The translations under genes were made by a program, and so were the position numbers. DNA of 24,000 nucleotides from an uncultured Candidatus Melainabacteria bacterium. GTDB lineage: Bacteria > Cyanobacteriota > Vampirovibrionia > Gastranaerophilales > Gastranaerophilaceae. The DNA lies in assembly GCA_934699705.1 (NCBI GenBank), contig CAKUXD010000012.1:22683-46682 (forward strand), given 5' to 3'. The notes below the pieces were generated by a model. The model was not told where the DNA came from. It was given only the letters and a program-made list of their open reading frames with translations, and made no database searches. Of the stretch, positions 2,647 to 20,864 are shown piece after piece; the first letter of the stretch is position 1; every line of letters begins with the position of its first letter.

Positions 2647-3219
2647 ATGAAAATTGTTTTTGCAACTGCAAATCCTCATAAATTACAAGAAGTAAATGCG
2701 ATTTGTGAAGGAGCAGGTTTAGAATTTATCTTACCCGCAGATGGATTTAATCCGATTGAAAATGGTAATACTTTCGAAGAAAATTCATTAATTAAGGCAA
2801 AAGAAGCCTTCAGAGTGTCAAAAACTTATGCCCTGGCCGATGATTCAGGTCTTTGTGTTGAAGCGTTAAATGGAGCGCCTGGACTTTATTCTGCCAGATA
2901 TGCAGGTTCTCAAGATGAAAAAATTGAAAAAATCCTTGCGGAATTAGAAGGTGAAGAAAACAGAAAAGCAAAATTTGTTTGTTGTATGACACTTTTGAAT
3001 GAAAAAGGTGAAATGATTTTTCAAACGACTGGTGAGTGCCATGGTTCTATTGTTGAAAAGAGAAAAGGGGTTAATGGCTTTGGTTATGACCCAGTATTTT
3101 TAGTGAATGGTTACGATAAAACAATGGCTGAATTATCAGAAAATGAAAAAAATAAAATTTCACACAGAGCTAATGCTTTGGCAAAAGTTTTAGATTTTAT
3201 AAAAAAAGATTTAATATAA
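2647..3219 (+). CDS. rdgB: RdgB/HAM1-family non-canonical purine NTP pyrophosphatase
   Basis: MKIVFATANPHKLQE.., ADDSGLCVEALNGAPGLYSARY, GFGYDPVF, SHRANAL motifs. Starts 2 nt after the uppS stop. Confidence 0.9.
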   Translation: MKIVFATANPHKLQEVNAICEGAGLEFILPADGFNPIENGNTFEENSLIKAKEAFRVSKTYALADDSGLCVEALNGAPGLYSARYAGSQDEKIEKILAELEGEENRKAKFVCCMTLLNEKGEMIFQTTGECHGSIVEKRKGVNGFGYDPVFLVNGYDKTMAELSENEKNKISHRANALAKVLDFIKKDLI

Positions 3220-3292
3220 CGTAAAATCTAATGATTTAAAAAAATGTTAATAATATAATATTTATATAAGAGATTTATGAAAGGATTTTTCA

Positions 3293-4303
3293 ATGATTAA
3301 TAGTGAAGTGTATCAACAATTGGAAAGAGAAATTAATCCAACACATGATATAAAACTTTTTGCTGGCCGTTCAAACCCAAAATTAGCACAAGAAGTTGCA
3401 GAGGCTTTGGGTACATCTATTGGGCCTATGGTTATTAAAGATTTTGCTGATGGTGAAATTTATGTACAGGTAAAAGACAGCGTAAGAGGCGATGATGTAT
3501 TTATTATTCAACCTCTTTGCAAACCTGTTAATCAAAATTTGATGGAATTATTGATTATTATTGATGCATTTAAACGTGCAAGCGCAAAATCAATAACTGC
3601 AGTTATTCCATATTACGGTTATGCAAGACAAGATAGAAAAACTTCTGGTAGAGAAGCAATTACTGCAAAATTGGTTGCGGATTTATTGACAACAGCTGGT
3701 TGTAACAGAGTTTTGGCGGTAGATTTACACTCTGGTCAAATTCAAGGCTTCTTTAATATATTGGTTGATCATATTTTTGCAACATCAATTTTAGTAAATC
3801 ATATTAAAAAATTAGGTTTAAACCCTGATGATATGGTTGCAGTCAGCCCTGATACGGGTGGAGTTCAAAGAGCAAGACACTTTGCAAAAGATTTAAGTTG
3901 CTCTCTTGCAATTATTGACAAACGTCGTGATAAACATAATGAAGCTATCGCAAATTGTGTAATTGGTGATGTTAAAGATAAAATTTGTATTATGTTTGAT
4001 GATATTATTGATACAGCAGGTTCAATCACAGAAGCAGCTAAATTGTTGAAAAAAGAAGGAGCAAGAGATATTTATGTTTGCGCTATTCACCCTGTATTCT
4101 CAGGTCCAGCTATTCAAAGATTGGAAGAAGCTCCTATTAAAGAAGTTATTGTAACTAATACAATTCCTCTTGATACAGAAAAACTTCCTGCAAAAATTAA
4201 ACAACTTTCAGTTGCAAACTTGTTAGGTCAAGCTATTTCTCGTATTCACGATGATGAATCTATAAGTTCTTTATTCGGTTTTGAAAAAGAAATGAAGGTT
4301 TAA
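3293..4303 (+). CDS. prs: Ribose-phosphate pyrophosphokinase (PRPP synthetase)
   Basis: FADGEIYVQ, YYGYARQDRK, DLHSGQIQGFF and the PRPP-binding loop MFDDIIDTAGS. AAAGGA sits 7 nt upstream of the ATG. Confidence 0.95.
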   Translation: MINSEVYQQLEREINPTHDIKLFAGRSNPKLAQEVAEALGTSIGPMVIKDFADGEIYVQVKDSVRGDDVFIIQPLCKPVNQNLMELLIIIDAFKRASAKSITAVIPYYGYARQDRKTSGREAITAKLVADLLTTAGCNRVLAVDLHSGQIQGFFNILVDHIFATSILVNHIKKLGLNPDDMVAVSPDTGGVQRARHFAKDLSCSLAIIDKRRDKHNEAIANCVIGDVKDKICIMFDDIIDTAGSITEAAKLLKKEGARDIYVCAIHPVFSGPAIQRLEEAPIKEVIVTNTIPLDTEKLPAKIKQLSVANLLGQAISRIHDDESISSLFGFEKEMKV

Positions 4304-14200: not shown

Positions 14201-14773
14201 ATGTTTGAAAATGATGACGATATTGAAAACTTCAATCCATTAGATGATTCAGCTTCTGATTCAGACTTGGATTTTACTGAAAATTTCAAAGATGCTAAGG
14301 AAGAGCAACCTGAAATTATAATGTCTGATGATGACGCAAATGTTAATTCTGATATTGATATGGATAATATTTTTGCGGATATACCTCCAATGCCAGAAGA
14401 AGAAATTCCTCAGGAAGATGATGCACATGTTCCAAGTGGTGATGAAACAGTTACTGTGCAACCTGTAAAATTTCCTTCTTTTGATGATGCTCAAAGCGCT
14501 TCAGGTAATGCGTCTAAAAATTTGGATAACTTGTTAGATATTAAACTTCAATTGACTGTTGAATTAGGTCGAACAACATTACCAGTTAAAAAAGTTCTTG
14601 AACTGACTAGAGGTTCAATTATTGAGTTGGAAAAAATTGCAGGTGAACCTGTTGAACTTTACGCAAATGGAAAATTGATTGCGCATGGCGAAGTTGTTGT
14701 TATTGAAGATAATTTCGGTTTAAGAATTACAAGTATGACAGAGCCAGAAAACAGATTGAACGGTCTTCAATAA
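14201..14773 (+). CDS. fliN: Flagellar motor switch protein FliN with a long acidic N-terminal extension
   Basis: C-terminal SpoA/FliN domain LLDIKLQLTVELGRTTLPVKKVLELTRGSIIELEKIAGEPVELYANGKLIAHGEVVVIEDNFGLRI. N-terminal approx. 105 aa are D/E-rich. Confidence 0.88.
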   Translation: MFENDDDIENFNPLDDSASDSDLDFTENFKDAKEEQPEIIMSDDDANVNSDIDMDNIFADIPPMPEEEIPQEDDAHVPSGDETVTVQPVKFPSFDDAQSASGNASKNLDNLLDIKLQLTVELGRTTLPVKKVLELTRGSIIELEKIAGEPVELYANGKLIAHGEVVVIEDNFGLRITSMTEPENRLNGLQ

Positions 14774-14837
14774 AAGTACTTGAAATTAAAATTTGTTTAT
14801 GGCAGAATGAAATAAGAATTTAATAGTGAATTAAAAT

Positions 14838-14911
14838 GGCAAGATAGCTCAGCTGGTGAGAGCGCTCGGCTCATACCCGGGAGGTCCTCGGTTCGATCCC
14901 GAGTCTTGCTA
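14838..14911 (+). tRNA. tRNA with anticodon CAT (elongator Met, or Ile2 if lysidine-modified); no encoded CCA
   Basis: Manual cloverleaf: acceptor GGCAAGA/TCTTGCT (G1-U72 wobble); D-arm GCTC-AGCTGGTGA-GAGC; anticodon arm CTCGG-CTCATAC-CCGGG (CAT at 14872-14874); variable loop AGGTC; T-arm CTCGG-TTCGATC-CCGAG; discriminator A. C11:G24 and the lack of a C1xA72 mismatch argue against an initiator. Confidence 0.85.
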
Positions 14912-14965
14912 TTTTTGTTGTGAATAGGACCTCACTGGTTGTTTTCACTTCGTTCAACCCCTCTC

Positions 14966-14992
14966 GTAAAAACAATTATTAATTGTTTTTAC
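14966..14992 (+). other. Perfect 12-bp AT-rich hairpin of module X1
   Basis: GTAAAAACAATT (14966-14977), loop ATT, AATTGTTTTTAC (14981-14992). Confidence 0.8.
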
Positions 14993-15041
14993 TCGGCAGA
15001 GTCCGAGAGGTTCGGTTCGATCCCGAGTCTTGCTATTTTTT
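14992..15041 (+). repeat. Partial tRNA-like copy B (degenerate anticodon arm + T-arm + 3' acceptor strand + T6)
   Basis: CTCGG-CAGAGT-CCGAG, AGG, TTCGG-TTCGATC-CCGAG, TCTTGCT, A, TTTTTT. Aligns with tRNA positions 27-73. No 5' acceptor strand or D-arm upstream. Confidence 0.85.
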
Positions 15042-15084
15042 GTTATTTGCTCCCGTGTAATCGCCTCGCGCTGCGCTCGTCTTT

Positions 15085-15123
15085 CTCCATTTTAACTTGA
15101 CATTTAGTCAACTTAAAACGGAG
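15085..15123 (+). other. Long imperfect hairpin of module Y
   Basis: CTCC-A-TTTTAACTTGAC, loop ATTTA, GTCAACTTAAAA-C-GGAG. 15 of 17 positions pair, with C96/C112 and A89/C119 mismatches. Confidence 0.65.
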
Positions 15124-15169
15124 TCCTTCCGTTAGGTCCTCGGTTCGATCCCGAGTCTTGCTATTTTTG
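15118..15169 (+). repeat. Partial tRNA-like copy C (small hairpin + exact copy of the tRNA from the variable loop to the T-run)
   Basis: ACGGA-GTCCT-TCCGT hairpin, then AGGTCCTCGGTTCGATCCCGAGTCTTGCTATTTTTG, identical to 14882-14917. Confidence 0.85.
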
Positions 15170-15217
15170 TTGTGAATAGGACCTCACTGGTTGTTTTCAT
15201 TTTGTTCAAACCCTCTC

Positions 15218-15244
15218 GTGAAAACAATTATTAATTGTTTTCAC
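15218..15244 (+). other. Perfect 12-bp hairpin of module X2, with a compensatory change relative to X1
   Basis: GTGAAAACAATT (15218-15229), loop ATT, AATTGTTTTCAC (15233-15244). Pair 3 is G:C here and A:T in X1. Confidence 0.8.
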
Positions 15245-15293
15245 TCGGCAGAGTCCGAGAGGTTCGGTTCAATCCCGAGTCTTGCTATTTTTA
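15244..15293 (+). repeat. Partial tRNA-like copy D (duplicate of copy B, T-loop G to A)
   Basis: CTCGG-CAGAGT-CCGAG, AGG, TTCGG-TTCAATC-CCGAG, TCTTGCT, A, TTTTT. Confidence 0.85.
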
Positions 15294-15453
15294 GTTTAAT
15301 TTTGTATCTTACTATTAAAGTACATTTGATTTATAAAGGTAATCTGCTTTAACGAGTAGCACATTTTGATTAAAGGACTTCAAAGAGGTAAAAAGAAAAG
15401 TTCAAATTCATAATAAATTTAAACCTTCCTTTTTTCTTCTTTTAAAAATAAAC

Positions 15454-16989
15454 CTATCCTAAAATTGCTTTTAAATCCTCTTTTGCAGTTGTAATCGGTT
15501 TTATCTTGAATTTATCAACCAATATATTTAACACATTAGCTGAAACGAATGCAGGTAATGTTGGTCCTAGTCTTATATTTTCAATTCCTAAATATAACAA
15601 CGTTAATAAAACACAAACTGCTTTTTGCTCGTACCAAGATAAAATTAAAGATAATGGTAATTCGTTTACAGAACAATTAAATGCTTTTGATAATTCAACA
15701 GCAACCTTTATTGCAGAATAAGCATCGTTACATTGTCCCATATCTAAAAGTCTAGGGATTCCATTTATTTCGCCTAAATCTAAATCGTTAAATCTATATT
15801 TTCCGCAAGCTAATGTTAAAATAAGTGTGTTTTTCGGTGTTTCTTTTACAAATTCTGTATAATAGTTACGACCTGTTTTTGCTCCATCACAACCACCAAC
15901 TAAGAAAATATGTTTCAATTCACCAGATTTTACTGCATCTATAACTTTATCTGCTACCGATAAAACTGTATTATGGCCAAATCCAACAGTTAATGTATTT
16001 CCTCCATTAATTCCTGTATTTTTTTGTGTTTCCTTGTAACCACCTAATTTCAAGGATTTTTCTATAATGATTGAAAAATCTTTATCTTCGCCGATATGTT
16101 CCATTTCTGGATATCTTACAACTGAGGTTGTAAAGACTCTATCTTTATAACTGTCTTTTACTGGCATAATACAGTTTGTTGTGAATAAAATTGGCGCTGG
16201 AATATTTTCAAATTCTTTTTGTTGATTTTGCCAGGCTGTTCCAAAATTACCTTTCAAATGTGGGTATTTTTTTAATTCTGGGTATGCATGACAAGGTAAC
16301 ATTTCTCCATGTGTATAAATATTTATTCCTTTATCTTTTGTCTGTTCTAGTAACAAAGCTAAATCATGTAAGTCATGTCCTGTTATAACAATAAAAGGTC
16401 CTGCTTCAATTTCTGTTGAAACTTTTGTTGGTACAGGATTTCCATAAGTTTCAGTGTTAGCTTTATCTAAAAGCTCCATACATTTCAAATTAATTTCACC
16501 TGTTTTTAAAACAAGTTGTAAAAGTTCGTCTGTTGATAAATCTTTTGAAATACCTTGCAAGGCTTCAAAAAAGAATTTATCTACTATTTCATCTGTATAA
16601 TTCAAAGCCCTTGCGTGATGAGCATAAGCAGCAGTACCTTTTAAACCAAATAAAATTAATGATTTTAAGCTTCTGATATCTTCATTACATTCCCATACTT
16701 CTTTAATATCAAAGTGATTTTTACAAGTATTTTTTTCTGATAATTCATTTATCAAATTCTTTATAGACTTATTATCAAAATTTACGTTAGTAATAGTTGT
16801 AAACAATGCGTTTACAATTAATTCTGTATTATCTTTTGAATAATCAACACAATTTGCAAATTCGATAGTTTTATTTGTTAATTCATCTTGAAGATTTGCA
16901 GTATCAAAAGTTTTTCCGCAAACACCTTGTATTGTACAACCTTCACCTTTAGCTGTCTGCTCGCATTGAAAACAAAACATTTTATTCAT
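15454..16989 (-). CDS. hcp: Hybrid-cluster protein / hydroxylamine reductase
   Basis: N-terminal Cys-x2-Cys-x8-Cys-x5-Cys (FCFQCEQTAKGEGCTIQGVCGK), plus ITGHDLHDL, TNCIMP, LVGGCDG, GQCNDAYSAI motifs. GGAG 8 nt upstream of ATG 16989. Confidence 0.93.
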   Translation of the reverse strand: MNKMFCFQCEQTAKGEGCTIQGVCGKTFDTANLQDELTNKTIEFANCVDYSKDNTELIVNALFTTITNVNFDNKSIKNLINELSEKNTCKNHFDIKEVWECNEDIRSLKSLILFGLKGTAAYAHHARALNYTDEIVDKFFFEALQGISKDLSTDELLQLVLKTGEINLKCMELLDKANTETYGNPVPTKVSTEIEAGPFIVITGHDLHDLALLLEQTKDKGINIYTHGEMLPCHAYPELKKYPHLKGNFGTAWQNQQKEFENIPAPILFTTNCIMPVKDSYKDRVFTTSVVRYPEMEHIGEDKDFSIIIEKSLKLGGYKETQKNTGINGGNTLTVGFGHNTVLSVADKVIDAVKSGELKHIFLVGGCDGAKTGRNYYTEFVKETPKNTLILTLACGKYRFNDLDLGEINGIPRLLDMGQCNDAYSAIKVAVELSKAFNCSVNELPLSLILSWYEQKAVCVLLTLLYLGIENIRLGPTLPAFVSANVLNILVDKFKIKPITTAKEDLKAILG

Positions 16990-17073
16990 CTTTAATTCTC
17001 CTTTACTTTTACCTATATTTAATTTATATTACTTTAACAAACAAATATGTTGGAAATCCCACAGAAAGGTAAA

Positions 17074-17730
17074 ATGGAAGAACTAATTAAGAATTTAGAA
17101 GAGTGTATTTTGTTTAAGAATATAGAAAATTCTCAAATTTTGCCCTTGTTAAACTGTTTAGAATATAAAATTAAGGAATATAAAAAAAATCAATTAGTTT
17201 TTCAAAATGGCTGTAAAACTAACAAAGGCGGAATTGTATTAAATGGAGCATTGCAAATTGTTCAATATGATTACTTTGGCAATCGTTCAATTTTATCAAG
17301 AATTGAAGAAAATCAACTATTTGGAATTTCCTACTCTTTATGTAATTTAGCATTACCAATATGCATTGAAGCTTCAACAGAAAGTGTGATTTTATTTATA
17401 AATGCAAATAAAATTACAACTCCTTGCAAAAAATTATGTCAAAATCACATAGTTTTAATGAATAATCTTTTAAACATTTTAGCAAGAAAAAATGTAAATC
17501 TTAATCAAAAAATAGAATGTTTATCTAAAAGAACAACAAGAGAAAAAATTCTAAATTATCTTACACAAAAATCAATTGAAAATAATTCAAAAACTTTTAA
17601 TATCCCCCATGATAGGCAAGGTTTGGCAGATTATTTATGCGTGGAAAGATCGGCGATGTCTGCTGAAATCACTAAACTTCAAAAAGAGGGGCTTATAAAG
17701 ACTAGAAAAAATTATTTTGAAATTTACTAA
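17074..17730 (+). CDS. Crp/Fnr-family transcriptional regulator, divergent from hcp (HcpR-like by context)
   Basis: N-terminal cNMP-binding-like beta-roll (LFKNIENSQILPLL...GGIVLNGALQIV..DYFGNRSIL) and C-terminal HTH (RQGLADYLCVERSAMSAEITKLQKEGLI). ATG 17074 is preferred (GAAAGG upstream) over ATG 17047, which has no SD. The HcpR role is inferred only from adjacency. Confidence 0.8.
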   Translation: MEELIKNLEECILFKNIENSQILPLLNCLEYKIKEYKKNQLVFQNGCKTNKGGIVLNGALQIVQYDYFGNRSILSRIEENQLFGISYSLCNLALPICIEASTESVILFINANKITTPCKKLCQNHIVLMNNLLNILARKNVNLNQKIECLSKRTTREKILNYLTQKSIENNSKTFNIPHDRQGLADYLCVERSAMSAEITKLQKEGLIKTRKNYFEIY

Positions 17731-17810
17731 ATTATATTTTATAAATAGACCATACATTGGAATATCTAGTGTTGTGCTTGTCTTGTTAACTATAAAATAT
17801 AAGTTTTCTG

Positions 17811-17819
17811 TGTTATAAT
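17811..17819 (+). promoter_or_regulatory. Candidate extended -10 promoter element upstream of the glycosyltransferase-like gene
   Basis: TGTTATAAT (TG-n-TATAAT) at 17811-17819, 20 nt upstream of the ATG and before the GAAGG SD. Sequence-only prediction in AT-rich DNA. Confidence 0.3.
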
Positions 17820-17839
17820 TTTTATAGTGAAGGTATTGT

Positions 17840-18808
17840 ATGTCTTTTTTTATACAAAAAAATATTAAAAATTTAAAATACAAGTTTATAAAATTTTATG
17901 CTTATAAAAGTGTTAAATTAAGATCTTTTTTGCTTAAATTAAAAGGTGAAAAAAGACTTGCAGAACGTTATAAGTCGTATTCTCATGAAAAATTATGTTC
18001 ATACAAATTAAAAAATACAAAATGGGGCTGTTCTTATTCTGTTTTTGATGGTGTAGAACTCTTAGAACGCAGTCTAAAATCAATTCGTGGGGCTTGTAAT
18101 TATATCAATGTTGTATATTCTGACGTATCTTGGTATGGTAAAAAGTCAGATGAACCGATATTACCAGTTTTAGAAGATTTAAAAGAAAAAAAATTAATTG
18201 ATGAAATTATTTTTTATGAACCAGATTTGAATTTATCAGCAGGTGAAAATGAGTTGAAAAAACGTAATTTGGGGCTGAAATATGCAAAAAAAGCAGATGT
18301 CGATTACTTTATGACTATTGATGTTGATGAATTTTATTTGCAGGAAGAAATGGAAATTGCAAAAAGAAAAATAATTGCTTTGGGTATAACTCATTCCTTC
18401 TGCAACATAATTGACTACTTTGTTTTGCCTGTTTTTGCGTATAGAACATCTAAAAATTGTGTTTCTTTTTTTTCTAAGTTGAATTGGAATAGTGTTCTAA
18501 AATTAAATGAAAAAACGATTACTCTTGTTGATCCAACTCGTCAAATGAGTGATTGTTTTAAATCAAAGTATTATTTATTATTATGTGTTGAAATGCATCA
18601 TATGGCGCTTATCCGTAAAAATGTTATTTCAAAATTTAGAAATTCTTCGGCAAGCATATATTTAGAAGGATTGAATTCTCTTGATAAATTGATTAAAAAT
18701 GATTTAAAAGATGTTTTTAGGACTAATGATTTGTTTAATCTAAAAGATTTGGCTCAAAAACTTTTGCGCAAACAAACTGATACTAACTTTGATTTTGATA
18801 GTGTTTAA
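17840..18808 (+). CDS. Putative GT-A-fold glycosyltransferase (DxD-type)
   Basis: CSYSVFDGVELLERSLKSI...INVVYSD resembles a GT2-like N-terminal nucleotide-binding core; DxD-like MTIDVDEFY. GAAGG 6 nt upstream of the ATG. Family not resolved by eye. Confidence 0.5.
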   Translation: MSFFIQKNIKNLKYKFIKFYAYKSVKLRSFLLKLKGEKRLAERYKSYSHEKLCSYKLKNTKWGCSYSVFDGVELLERSLKSIRGACNYINVVYSDVSWYGKKSDEPILPVLEDLKEKKLIDEIIFYEPDLNLSAGENELKKRNLGLKYAKKADVDYFMTIDVDEFYLQEEMEIAKRKIIALGITHSFCNIIDYFVLPVFAYRTSKNCVSFFSKLNWNSVLKLNEKTITLVDPTRQMSDCFKSKYYLLLCVEMHHMALIRKNVISKFRNSSASIYLEGLNSLDKLIKNDLKDVFRTNDLFNLKDLAQKLLRKQTDTNFDFDSV

Positions 18809-20201: not shown

Positions 20202-20864
20202 ATGTCAAACGAAGAAAAATTAGAACAAACTGAAGCAGTTGAAACAAACGAAACTGCTGAAGCTGTAGAAACAGAAGAAGTTGCTGAAGAAGCACACGAA
20301 GAATTTGAAGATGCAGCAAGAGAAAAAGGTGAAAGAAAACAACGTTCACGCCGTAAAAAAGTTGAAACAACAGAAGAAAAACCAGTTTCTGAATGGCAAG
20401 AACGTGTTGTACAAATCAGACGTGTAACAAAAGTTGTAAAAGGTGGTAAAAAATTAAGCTTCCGCGCAGTTGTTATCGTTGGTAATCAAAAAGGCCAAGT
20501 TGGCGTAGGTTGTGCAAAAGCAGCTGAAGTTATTATTGCTATTCAAAAAGCAATTGCTGATGGACGTAAAAACTTGATTAATGTGCCAATTTTTAAAACA
20601 ACTATTCCACACCCAATTACAGGTGAATCAGGCGCAGGTGCTGTAATGTTAAGACCAGCTTCACAAGGTACTGGTATTATTGCAGGTGGTGCAGTTCGTT
20701 CAGTATTAGAACTTGCAGGTATTGAAAATATTTTATCAAAATCTTTAGGTTCTAAATCACCATTAAACGCAGCAAACGCAACTTTGGACGCTTTACAAAA
20801 ATTAGCTCCATTTTCAGACGTTGCTAAAAAACGTGGTTTAACAGTTGCAGAATTATTAAATTAG
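20202..20864 (+). CDS. rpsE: 30S ribosomal protein S5 with an acidic N-terminal extension
   Basis: Core [35 protein letters not shown]..., [12 protein letters not shown].. GGAAGG 5 nt upstream of the ATG. 220 aa. Confidence 0.95.

Follow-up and report, generated by a model that had tools for sequence, protein, structure and literature searches.

The tRNA-linked repeats (TLRs) of Escherichia coli have been on record since 1978. [quoted passage not shown] For some of these repeats, read-through transcription and processing have been described, as well as binding to Hfq and CsrA in vitro; no function has been assigned (PMC8144298). Also in E. coli, 3′ETS-leuZ is a small RNA that lies between a tRNA and the operon terminator and is released by tRNA processing (summarized in PMC8144298). 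Here, we analyze a tRNA-Met gene that is trailed by three additional copies of its own 3′ end, located in a 24,000-nt stretch of DNA (the window) of contig CAKUXD010000012.1 (assembly GCA_934699705.1) from an uncultured gut member of the Gastranaerophilales (‘Melainabacteria’). We document the anatomy and conservation of the block, its structure-preserving changes and strand bias of G-U pairs, its polymorphism and recombinational turnover, and its promoter- and terminator-like signals. We lean, with modest confidence, towards the view that the block is a lineage-specific set of tRNA-linked repeat modules, i.e. structured RNAs under selection that would be co-transcribed with tRNA-Met, each ended by a tRNA-derived hairpin and U-run, and shuffled by recombination between tRNA ends.

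Anatomy of the tRNA-Met array

ARAGORN and Rfam each report a single tRNA in the window, a tRNA-Met(CAT) for which CCA is not encoded and in which the G1-U72 pair, C11-G24 and A73 are elongator-like. The 22-mer at its 3′ end, GGTTCGATCCCGAGTCTTGCTA, is found in exact form at 14890 (within the gene itself), 15014 and 15142, and with one mismatch at 15266, as compared with an expectation of zero copies from 100 shuffles. The order of the block is tRNA-X1-B-Y-C-X2-D, in which B, C and D denote the additional tRNA ends and X and Y the spacers that precede them. An original prediction, made by reading the letters of the window, had proposed this layout with the tRNA as copy A and a 252-bp period, and its account of the array proves accurate. 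The additional ends match in 22/22, 22/22 and 21/22 nt, and a direct repeat of 168 nt (14877–15044 and 15129–15296; 95% identical, 9 mismatches) lies at a spacing of 252 nt, within which 14882–15044 and 15134–15296 show exactly the 7 differences in 163 nt that had been counted. The long hairpin in every spacer and the pseudo-anticodon hairpins of B, C and D also read as described (Table 1), and the supposed enrichment in G+C is borne out by a value of 0.451 across 14838–15296 against 0.314 and 0.296 in the flanks. The terminal tag copies differ by a point change (G at 15019, A at 15271).

None of the units possesses the 5′ acceptor strand and D-arm required of a cloverleaf, and the 26–30 bits that they score on the tRNA model are due solely to the shared tag. 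No 5′ partner for TCTTGCT was found within the modules; GGCAGAG in the loop of X pairs only with a bulge and Y is without an equivalent. The modules also contain no conserved reading frame initiated by ATG, an 81-amino acid (aa) open reading frame (ORF) across the array of the comparison stretch L013 being spurious. Each X or Y module is ∼110–120 nt in length and consists largely of rearranged tRNA pieces, which follow one another as an anti-tRNA 5′ segment, one or two hairpins, an unpaired C/U-rich motif, a pseudo-anticodon hairpin, the tRNA from position ∼40 to the discriminator, and a U-run.

The sigma-70-like promoter behind fliN is the sole promoter-like site in 14700–15500, and a promoter-like motif, CTTGAAAT followed by TRTGnnAnAAT, is located right after fliN in all fliN-linked species. 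In B and D, the T-arm is extended to 9 bp because the variable region is shortened, and is then followed by GCTATTTTTT in B. Both copies are picked up by the terminator scan, which returned 7 terminator-like sites as compared with 0.6 expected. The hcp gene is convergent with the array, as had been noted.

Table 1. Features of the tRNA-Met array in the window and its flanking genes
Feature	Position	Strand	Evidence or remark
Promoter, sigma-70-like (TTGAAA, 17 nt, TG-n-CAGAAT), directly 3′ of fliN stop codon	14780–14808	+	Promoter scan
tRNA-Met(CAT) gene, then T5	14838–14911	+	ARAGORN (14837–14912); Rfam, 64.6 bits
Module X1-B	14925–15035	+	Covariance model, 130.2 bits; alignment; folds
X1-B, anti-tRNA segment	14926–14939		
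X1-B, hairpin 1	14937–14959		
X1-B, C-rich CCCTCTC	14959–14965		
X1-B, A/T-rich hairpin 2 (long spacer hairpin)	14966–14992		
X1-B, pseudo-anticodon hairpin, CTCGG-CAGAGT-CCGAG	14992–15007		
X1-B, tRNA-derived tag	15003–15035		
Copy B, terminator-like: 9-bp extended T-arm (GAGGTTCGG/CCGAGTCTT), then GCTATTTTTT	15007–15041	+	Terminator scan
Module Y-C	15042–15163	+	Sequence, folds; same module in L020, L161/L162/L167
Y-C, anti-tRNA CTCCCG	15050–15055		
Y-C, G+C-rich body			
Y-C, C/U-rich motif TCTTTCTCC			
Y-C, long spacer hairpin with C-C mismatch	15090–15118		
Y-C, pseudo-anticodon hairpin, ACGGA-GTCCT-TCCGT	15118–15132		
Y-C, tRNA-derived tag	15129–15163		
Module X2-D, paralogue of X1-B	15177–15287	+	Covariance model, 131.4 bits
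X2-D, long spacer hairpin	15218–15244		
X2-D, pseudo-anticodon hairpin, CTCGG-CAGAGT-CCGAG	15244–15259		
Copy D, terminator-like: extended T-arm, then GCTATTTTTA; closes array	15259–15292	+	
fliN	ends 14773	+	Flanking gene
Prismane/hcp gene	15454–16989	−	Converges on array

Module types and their distribution

The comparison stretches retrieved for this work are labelled L001, L002, etc. A scan for the tRNA end, which covered one genome per species, yielded 20 stretches, all of which are ‘Melainabacteria’/Gastranaerophilales metagenome-assembled genomes (MAGs) or mis-binned contigs with the same fliN–tRNA junction. Further species were obtained via FliN homologues, and a second clade via the signal peptidase gene that precedes its tRNA (lepB-linked). 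At least 23 contigs from human-gut metagenomes encode a FliN identical to that of the window, and tRNA-Met is identical across the fliN-linked species and in every Gastranaerophilales locus that was retrieved with the 3′-end 22-mer. A metagenome scan with the loose pattern TCGGCAGAGTCCN{8,13}GGTTC gave 120 stretches, all of them chance matches with the exception of L089.

Modules of three types, X, Y and Z, recur at the same tRNA-Met locus across many species. The X module has the consensus AGGACCTCACGGGTTG...CAAACCCTCTCG, followed by an A/T-rich hairpin, CTCGGCAGAGTCCG and the tRNA-derived tag, and is present in at least 10 species or strains. The covariance-model search that the original prediction had suggested was carried out with a model built from ten X copies and with 14 unrelated contigs as controls; it recovered 12 full X-B copies at 97–139 bits, all at tRNA-Met loci, as well as truncated copies at 35–63 bits, and gave no match outside tRNA-Met loci, elsewhere in the window or in the control contigs. 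Module Y is found in the window, in L020 and in L161, L162 and L167, and in a diverged form in L089. Module Z, which is not in the window, is found 5′ of the tRNA, both in other strains of the window species (L002, L003 and L009) and in eight other lineages. In Z, a duplicate of the leader and of the initial 14 nt of the tRNA is combined with a D-arm-like stretch, with a hairpin that is conserved, and with CACCAGCTGAGC, which is the exact reverse complement of the tRNA D-arm (12 nt). The earlier statement that the extra copies have no 5′ acceptor strand therefore stands for the window and has to be qualified for the species, as Z supplies both a 5′ acceptor copy and a D-arm-like stretch. In all module types a C/U-rich motif is situated unpaired just 5′ of the long hairpin (CCCTCTC in X, TCTTCCTCC in Y, and CTCCCTCTC in L178). 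Upstream of the tRNA in L181, of the lepB-linked clade, a D-arm-like fragment (AGCAAAGCTGGTTAGA) and two hairpins are seen at 3680–3765, and in L188 a 5′ tRNA fragment (GGCAAAGTAG) is fused to a G+C-rich hairpin at the contig end (3680–3714); both may be counterparts of Z.

The modules do not behave as dispersed repeats of the MITE, REP or BOX type, as all 20 species-representative stretches are at the tRNA-Met locus or its contig ends, and none of five other tRNAs examined has repeated 3′ ends. Rfam returned no family for the spacers, its only match being tRNA, whether the gathering score or a cut-off of E ≤ 1 was applied. A resemblance of Z to a hammerhead (CGAAAC...GUC) was dropped on that account. 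ARAGORN reports no permuted or two-piece transfer-messenger RNA.

Conservation and RNA structure

To gauge divergence, the identity of each X body to that of the window is given alongside the identity at four-fold sites of fliN. These are 90% for the X body and 84% for four-fold sites in L020, 87.5% and 70% in L151, 87.5% and 64% in L013, 79% and 60% in L022, and 81% and 50% in L168, the last four-fold value being about the floor for an A+T-rich genome. The X body of the distant L089, for which four-fold sites were not compared, is 67% identical. X therefore diverges in step with its host, yet much more slowly than neutral sites. The Y modules of the window and L161 have ∼4 differences in 80 positions at a four-fold site identity of 51%, and the spacers between the tRNA end and X are unalignable across species.

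Changes within the modules preserve structure. Hairpin 2 of X is retained in 8/8 sequence variants with changes on both strands (GUAAAAAC.../...GUUUUUAC, GUGAAAAC.../...GUUUUCAC, GCAAAAAC.../...GUUUUUGC and GGAAAAAGAUU/AAUCUUUUUCC), and double-sided changes are seen in L089. Within the window itself, two of the seven X1/X2 differences are stem partners in this hairpin (A at 14968 to G at 15220, and T at 14990 to C at 15242), which converts an A-U into a G-C pair; the chance of such a compensatory pair is estimated at roughly 0.01. In the stem of Z, two pairs vary only as A-U/G-U and U-A/U-G, and these remain paired on the tRNA strand and are unpaired on the opposite strand. A structure that is read as + strand RNA is favoured, with single-stranded DNA being less likely. 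The conservation, the compensatory changes and the strand-biased G-U pairs lead us to reject decaying scars as an account of the modules. Of the folds considered, the helix CCCTCTCG/CGAGAGG from a single-sequence fold was discarded, as its 3′ partner varies without compensation, and the minimum-free-energy fold of the whole transcript is uninformative, being dominated by pairing among the repeated tRNA pieces.

Relation of the modules to the tRNA

Three lineages (L089, L178/L179 and L181) have a different tRNA-Met. In L089 and L178, the tag is the lineage's own tRNA from position ∼40 to the discriminator base and U-run. The pseudo-anticodon hairpin keeps its module-specific sequence, (C/T)TCGG-CAGAGT in X and ACGGA-GTCCT in Y, and it does so even at the cost of a stem mismatch, the 5′ strand of the stem not following the host tRNA. 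The switch to host-tRNA identity lies at position ∼40 in three lineages. A crossover at a set site would leave this pattern, as would gene conversion that stops at a selected hairpin. In L089 (∼3120–3235, oriented), a Y-type tag is interrupted in the T-loop (GGTTCC...GACTCTTGCTG) by ∼110 nt of unrelated sequence.

Every X and Y module starts with a segment that is complementary to tRNA positions ∼37–52. The segment of X, AGGACCTCACGGGT, pairs at 13/14 positions and that of Y in L161, GACCTCCCG, at 9/9, and the energies of the duplexes with the tRNA range from −21 to −32 kcal/mol. For L020, the duplex is at −24.6 kcal/mol compared with −14.0 ± 3.1 kcal/mol for shuffled sequences, and 0/500 shuffles reach it. 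One compensatory double change is observed, AGGACC/GGTCCT of the window becoming ACGACC/GGTCGT in L089. The anti-tRNA segment and a U-rich run persist right after the tRNA in L181 and L155/L025, where the rest of X is lost, and in L181 the duplex with its own tRNA is at −31.7 kcal/mol. A comparison of duplex energies with own and foreign tRNAs gave no discrimination, the tRNA variants being too similar.

Turnover within species and variable surroundings

Among alleles of one species with identical FliN, the number of modules varies from 0 to 3. In the window species, tRNA-X-B-Y-C-X-D is found in the window and L001, Z-tRNA-X-D in L002 and L003 (L009 has the Z part and ends before the tRNA), a Z-deletion remnant with the tRNA in L004, L005 and L010, and tRNA-X-B-X... 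in L008. A second species has the tRNA alone in L164, tRNA-terminator-Y-C in L161, L162 and L167, and Z-tRNA in L163, L165 and L166, and the array of L151 is Z-Z-tRNA-X-B-X′. The comparison of relatives that had been proposed produced module-free alleles (L164) and, among the genes called and flanking ORFs scanned, no integrase-bearing occupants. Every gain or loss is bounded by repeated tRNA ends, and unequal homologous recombination between these ends explains both the gains and losses and the tags staying identical to the tRNA. In L017, L022, L023 and L151, a species-specific spacer is duplicated jointly with X, and several arrays end in truncated X copies.

Many short-read contigs are broken exactly at the repeat and an N-gap lies inside X2 of L001, as might be expected of an assembly artefact. 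Arrays of the same build are present in independent assemblies and in several species, so an artefact in kind, which the original prediction had allowed for, is discounted. Two X copies are required if Y is present because the B-Y and C-X2 junctions are unique and X1 and X2 differ at seven positions; as many short-read contigs end at the repeat, the exact module count in the window needs long reads.

Gene content beside tRNA-Met differs in nearly every species sampled. The interval between the array and a conserved HlyIII gene holds hcp, a Crp-family regulator and a 322-aa ORF without a Pfam family in the window (15454–18808), and a single glycosyltransferase in L151 (5184–6621). In L161–L166, a strain-variable pair of paralogues, whose products of 224 and 235 aa match no Pfam family, is located 300–450 nt 3′ of the tRNA; one or both genes are present per strain, each after a repeated upstream region with an (ATGAT)n microsatellite of variable length. 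Further along the window, a 27-nt and 21-nt tandem repeat at 20230–20301, in the 5′ part of the ribosomal protein S5 gene, would encode a repetitive Glu-/Lys-rich N-terminal extension.

Interpretation and alternative explanations

The original prediction had left two readings open, namely structured RNAs with tRNA-like 3′ tags and units flanked by integrase attachment sites. The former is the better fit to the conservation, compensatory changes, strand-biased G-U pairs, promoter and terminator-like tags, and is favoured but unproven. It may operate as follows. A single promoter 3′ of fliN would drive one transcript, starting ∼20 nt before the tRNA or before Z, from which RNase P and 3′ processing would free tRNA-Met. 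X and Y would remain as structured RNAs of 110–130 nt that end at the tRNA-derived T-arm hairpin and U-run, the tag having seemingly become a 9-bp terminator-like hairpin in B and D, and Z would remain as a leader-derived RNA. As candidate actions, the C-rich motif might pair with purine-rich ribosome-binding sites, a protein might bind the pseudo-anticodon loops, which are invariant, or the anti-tRNA segment might pair with tRNA-Met, either mature or as the precursor. Homologous recombination between tRNA ends would change the number and order of copies and keep the tags equal to the tRNA.

Several points weigh against this interpretation. Transcription and processing of the modules are inferred from sequence. 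Read-through is required in L013 and L161 because a canonical terminator hairpin stands between tRNA and module, and recognition of the tags by RNase P or RNase Z is not expected because the extra copies are without a 5′ acceptor strand. The module-free alleles (L164) indicate that the modules are dispensable within a species, which is odd for a strongly conserved function. In RNAalifold, the covariation term is near zero and the overall fold is ambiguous, and the comparative sample is small (∼8–10 lineages).

A genuine but unlikely alternative is that of miniature, non-autonomous cassettes moving into and out of the tRNA-Met gene, either through a recombinase encoded elsewhere or through homologous recombination at the universally conserved tRNA sequence; the hairpins of the modules would then serve recombination in cis and not as RNA. 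We retain it as the main rival because alleles with and without modules occur in one species with identical FliN (L164, L161/L162 and L163, and variants V1–V4 of the window species), the switch point of the tag is fixed, Y is near-identical between species with saturated synonymous sites, the gene downstream of tRNA-Met is variable between species, and in L029 the 3′ half of a tRNA begins precisely at the anticodon loop, with foreign DNA in front. As in an array of attachment sites, direct repeats of the tRNA 3′ part bound each unit. No tyrosine or serine recombinase, or remnant of one, was found beside the repeats among the called genes and scanned ORFs, and no phage-borne element with matching attP in viral contigs. 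In agreement with the original prediction, no integrase or transposase family was detected among the 20 window ORFs scanned with Pfam (the 20 longest of 25 ORFs of ≥80 aa). Beside related arrays, none was found among called genes with Pfam hits or four flanking ORFs scanned, further ORFs at the ∼17 loci being mostly unscanned, and L011 alone gave a hit, to a weak remnant of the rve (DDE transposase) type. In 2.9 million viral contigs, a search that did not extend to plasmids or integrative conjugative elements, the tRNA-end 22-mer has no match, and the cores of X, Y and Z have chance matches in G+C-rich contigs only. Moreover, all species-representative copies are at one locus, the divergence of X tracks that of the host as in vertical descent, spacers duplicated together with X point to local tandem duplication over repeated entry, and circles of 125–190 bp would be very small substrates for a recombinase. 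The proposal of mobile mini-modules is therefore weakened and keeps some support.

Some related loci carry interruptions of their own. In L029 (contig CAJOPF010000051; 273 nt, minus strand as printed), the tRNA copy, which runs from the anticodon loop (CTCATAC...) as far as its 3′ end, leads into TTTCTTTTTTATATTGGACCT, where X starts, and the same MAG, CAJOPF01, has an intact tRNA on another contig (L030) with a different trailer; L029 looks like a genuine element inserted at the tRNA anticodon loop. In L011 (∼960–1230, + strand) and L024 (∼1790–1837, + strand), direct/inverted repeats of TGTACGG(G/A)TAA ∼120 nt 3′ of tRNA-Met cut into Y and X, respectively, and resemble the multi-site terminus of a DDE transposon of the Tn7 or Mu kind. 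The rve-domain match of L011 (E = 0.003) is in a 314-aa ORF (2819–3763, minus strand) next to a truncated ABC-transporter ORF. In L019 (4950–5277, + strand), X is cut within the pseudo-anticodon loop, after CTCGGCAGA, and is followed by a terminator-like hairpin and then by repeated CACTAAG(G/A)TACTA(A/T)GG motifs up to the contig end.

It is rather improbable that the block is purely a cis-acting 3′ trailer, which would terminate, insulate or quality-control the transcription or folding of tRNA-Met and do nothing in trans. The anti-tRNA segment and U-rich run that are kept after the tRNA without the rest of X, the terminator-like nature of B and D, and the convergent gene faced by the window array are all in keeping with such a trailer. 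However, the conserved internal hairpin, C-rich motif and pseudo-anticodon loops, as well as the tandem copies and upstream Z, would be left without a role, and pairing at tRNA positions 37–52 would have to invade a tRNA that is already folded. We hold it to be doubtful, and improbable to a greater degree, that the modules regulate their own tRNA, with Z (12-nt D-arm complement) and X/Y (9–14-nt complement) holding the precursor in a non-cloverleaf form or capturing tRNA-Met in trans; if so, they would tune the supply of tRNA-Met. A tRNA-like RNA in two pieces, formed by Z (5′-half mimic) and X-B (3′-half mimic) on either side of the real tRNA, is less likely; the cofold gain of the pair is −15.2 kcal/mol versus −9.9 ± 3.0 kcal/mol with shuffled Z, which is not significant, and Z and X each occur without the other. 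Finally, that the extra tRNA ends are functionless decaying integration scars, duplicated-tRNA remnants or an assembly artefact is very improbable and largely refuted. Direct repeats of tRNA 3′ ends are the classic integrase footprint, tycheposon islands carry scattered partial tRNAs (bioRxiv 10.1101/2020.12.28.424599), and point changes in terminal copies and truncated X at array ends would suit decay. Against this, the modules are conserved well beyond the neutral level and show compensatory changes, and they are kept in lineages whose tRNA has diverged. The scar version also fails on the condition that the original prediction had set for it, since the modules are shared by relatives, covariation included, and no integrase was found among the called genes and scanned ORFs in the readable flanks of ∼17 related loci.

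Comparison with known systems

The TLRs of E. coli (rtT/RttR of the tyrT operon; rrA/rrB/rrF of the rRNA operons) are the closest kind to the modules described here. In both cases, non-coding units lie directly 3′ of a tRNA and on the same strand, with no intervening gene or promoter-like site at the present locus, and terminate with the 3′-end sequence of the tRNA that precedes them (here 22/22, 22/22 and 21/22 nt). Copy number is variable in both, and the three units of the window and 0–3 of its relatives compare with one to five in E. coli. In the tyrT-tyrV-rttR locus of strain MG1655 (L189, 1287066–1287236 region), each 178-bp unit ends in AATCCTTCCCCCACCACCA and holds GGGGAAGGAT, the reverse complement of its tRNA-derived 3′ tag ATCCTTCCCC, as well as a degenerate T-arm-like stretch, CTTCGACCAAGGTTCGA. 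The combination of a tRNA-derived tag with an internal anti-tag is, on these sequences, a design principle common to the E. coli TLR and the present family. This precedent, the anti-tRNA segment of each module and the upstream module Z are points beyond the original prediction. Homology between the two families is absent, as judged from the lack of an Rfam rtT match and from local alignment to the tyrT unit that is no better than shuffles (corrected, six tests). The present family differs in having a longer tag (22–35 nt with the whole T-arm versus 18–19 nt in the E. coli TLR), no encoded CCA, and a conserved pseudo-anticodon hairpin 5′ of the tag. Its anti-tRNA segment is complementary to the anticodon-stem/variable/T-stem region and not to the acceptor end, a companion Z upstream copies the tRNA 5′ end, and the host belongs to a different phylum.

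As in 3′ETS-leuZ, an RNA (here predicted) is placed between tRNA and terminator; 3′ETS-leuZ contains no copy of a tRNA end, is not repeated and has a demonstrated sponge function, whereas any role of the modules here is putative. The locus resembles the tycheposons of Prochlorococcus and CIME-type elements in that tRNA 3′ repeats are stacked 3′ of an intact tRNA, tRNA-Met is among the targets, and a variable gene region adjoins. The repeats of that type, however, flank kilobase elements with integrases or their remnants, whereas the units here are ∼125 bp with no integrase found beside them, are conserved with compensatory changes, and are duplicated locally with their spacers. The pneumococcal BOX, Neisseria Correia and REP/BIME elements are modular intergenic repeats with RNA hairpins that are dispersed in tens to hundreds of copies per genome; the present modules are likewise modular, hairpin-rich and variable in copy number but occur at a single locus, in association with a single tRNA.

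Partial tRNAs stacked in an array need not, accordingly, be scars of integration, and at the tRNA-Met locus they cause metagenome assemblies to break. The modules would represent a second, unrelated family of tRNA-linked repeats, from a distant uncultured phylum, that is conserved under selection and has a clearer anatomy (tag, anti-tRNA segment, hairpin loop and C-rich motif). This suggests that the use of a neighbouring tRNA's end as a tag on an RNA is a solution that recurs and not an oddity of E. coli, and the family provides comparative data for hypotheses on the purpose of tRNA-linked repeats.

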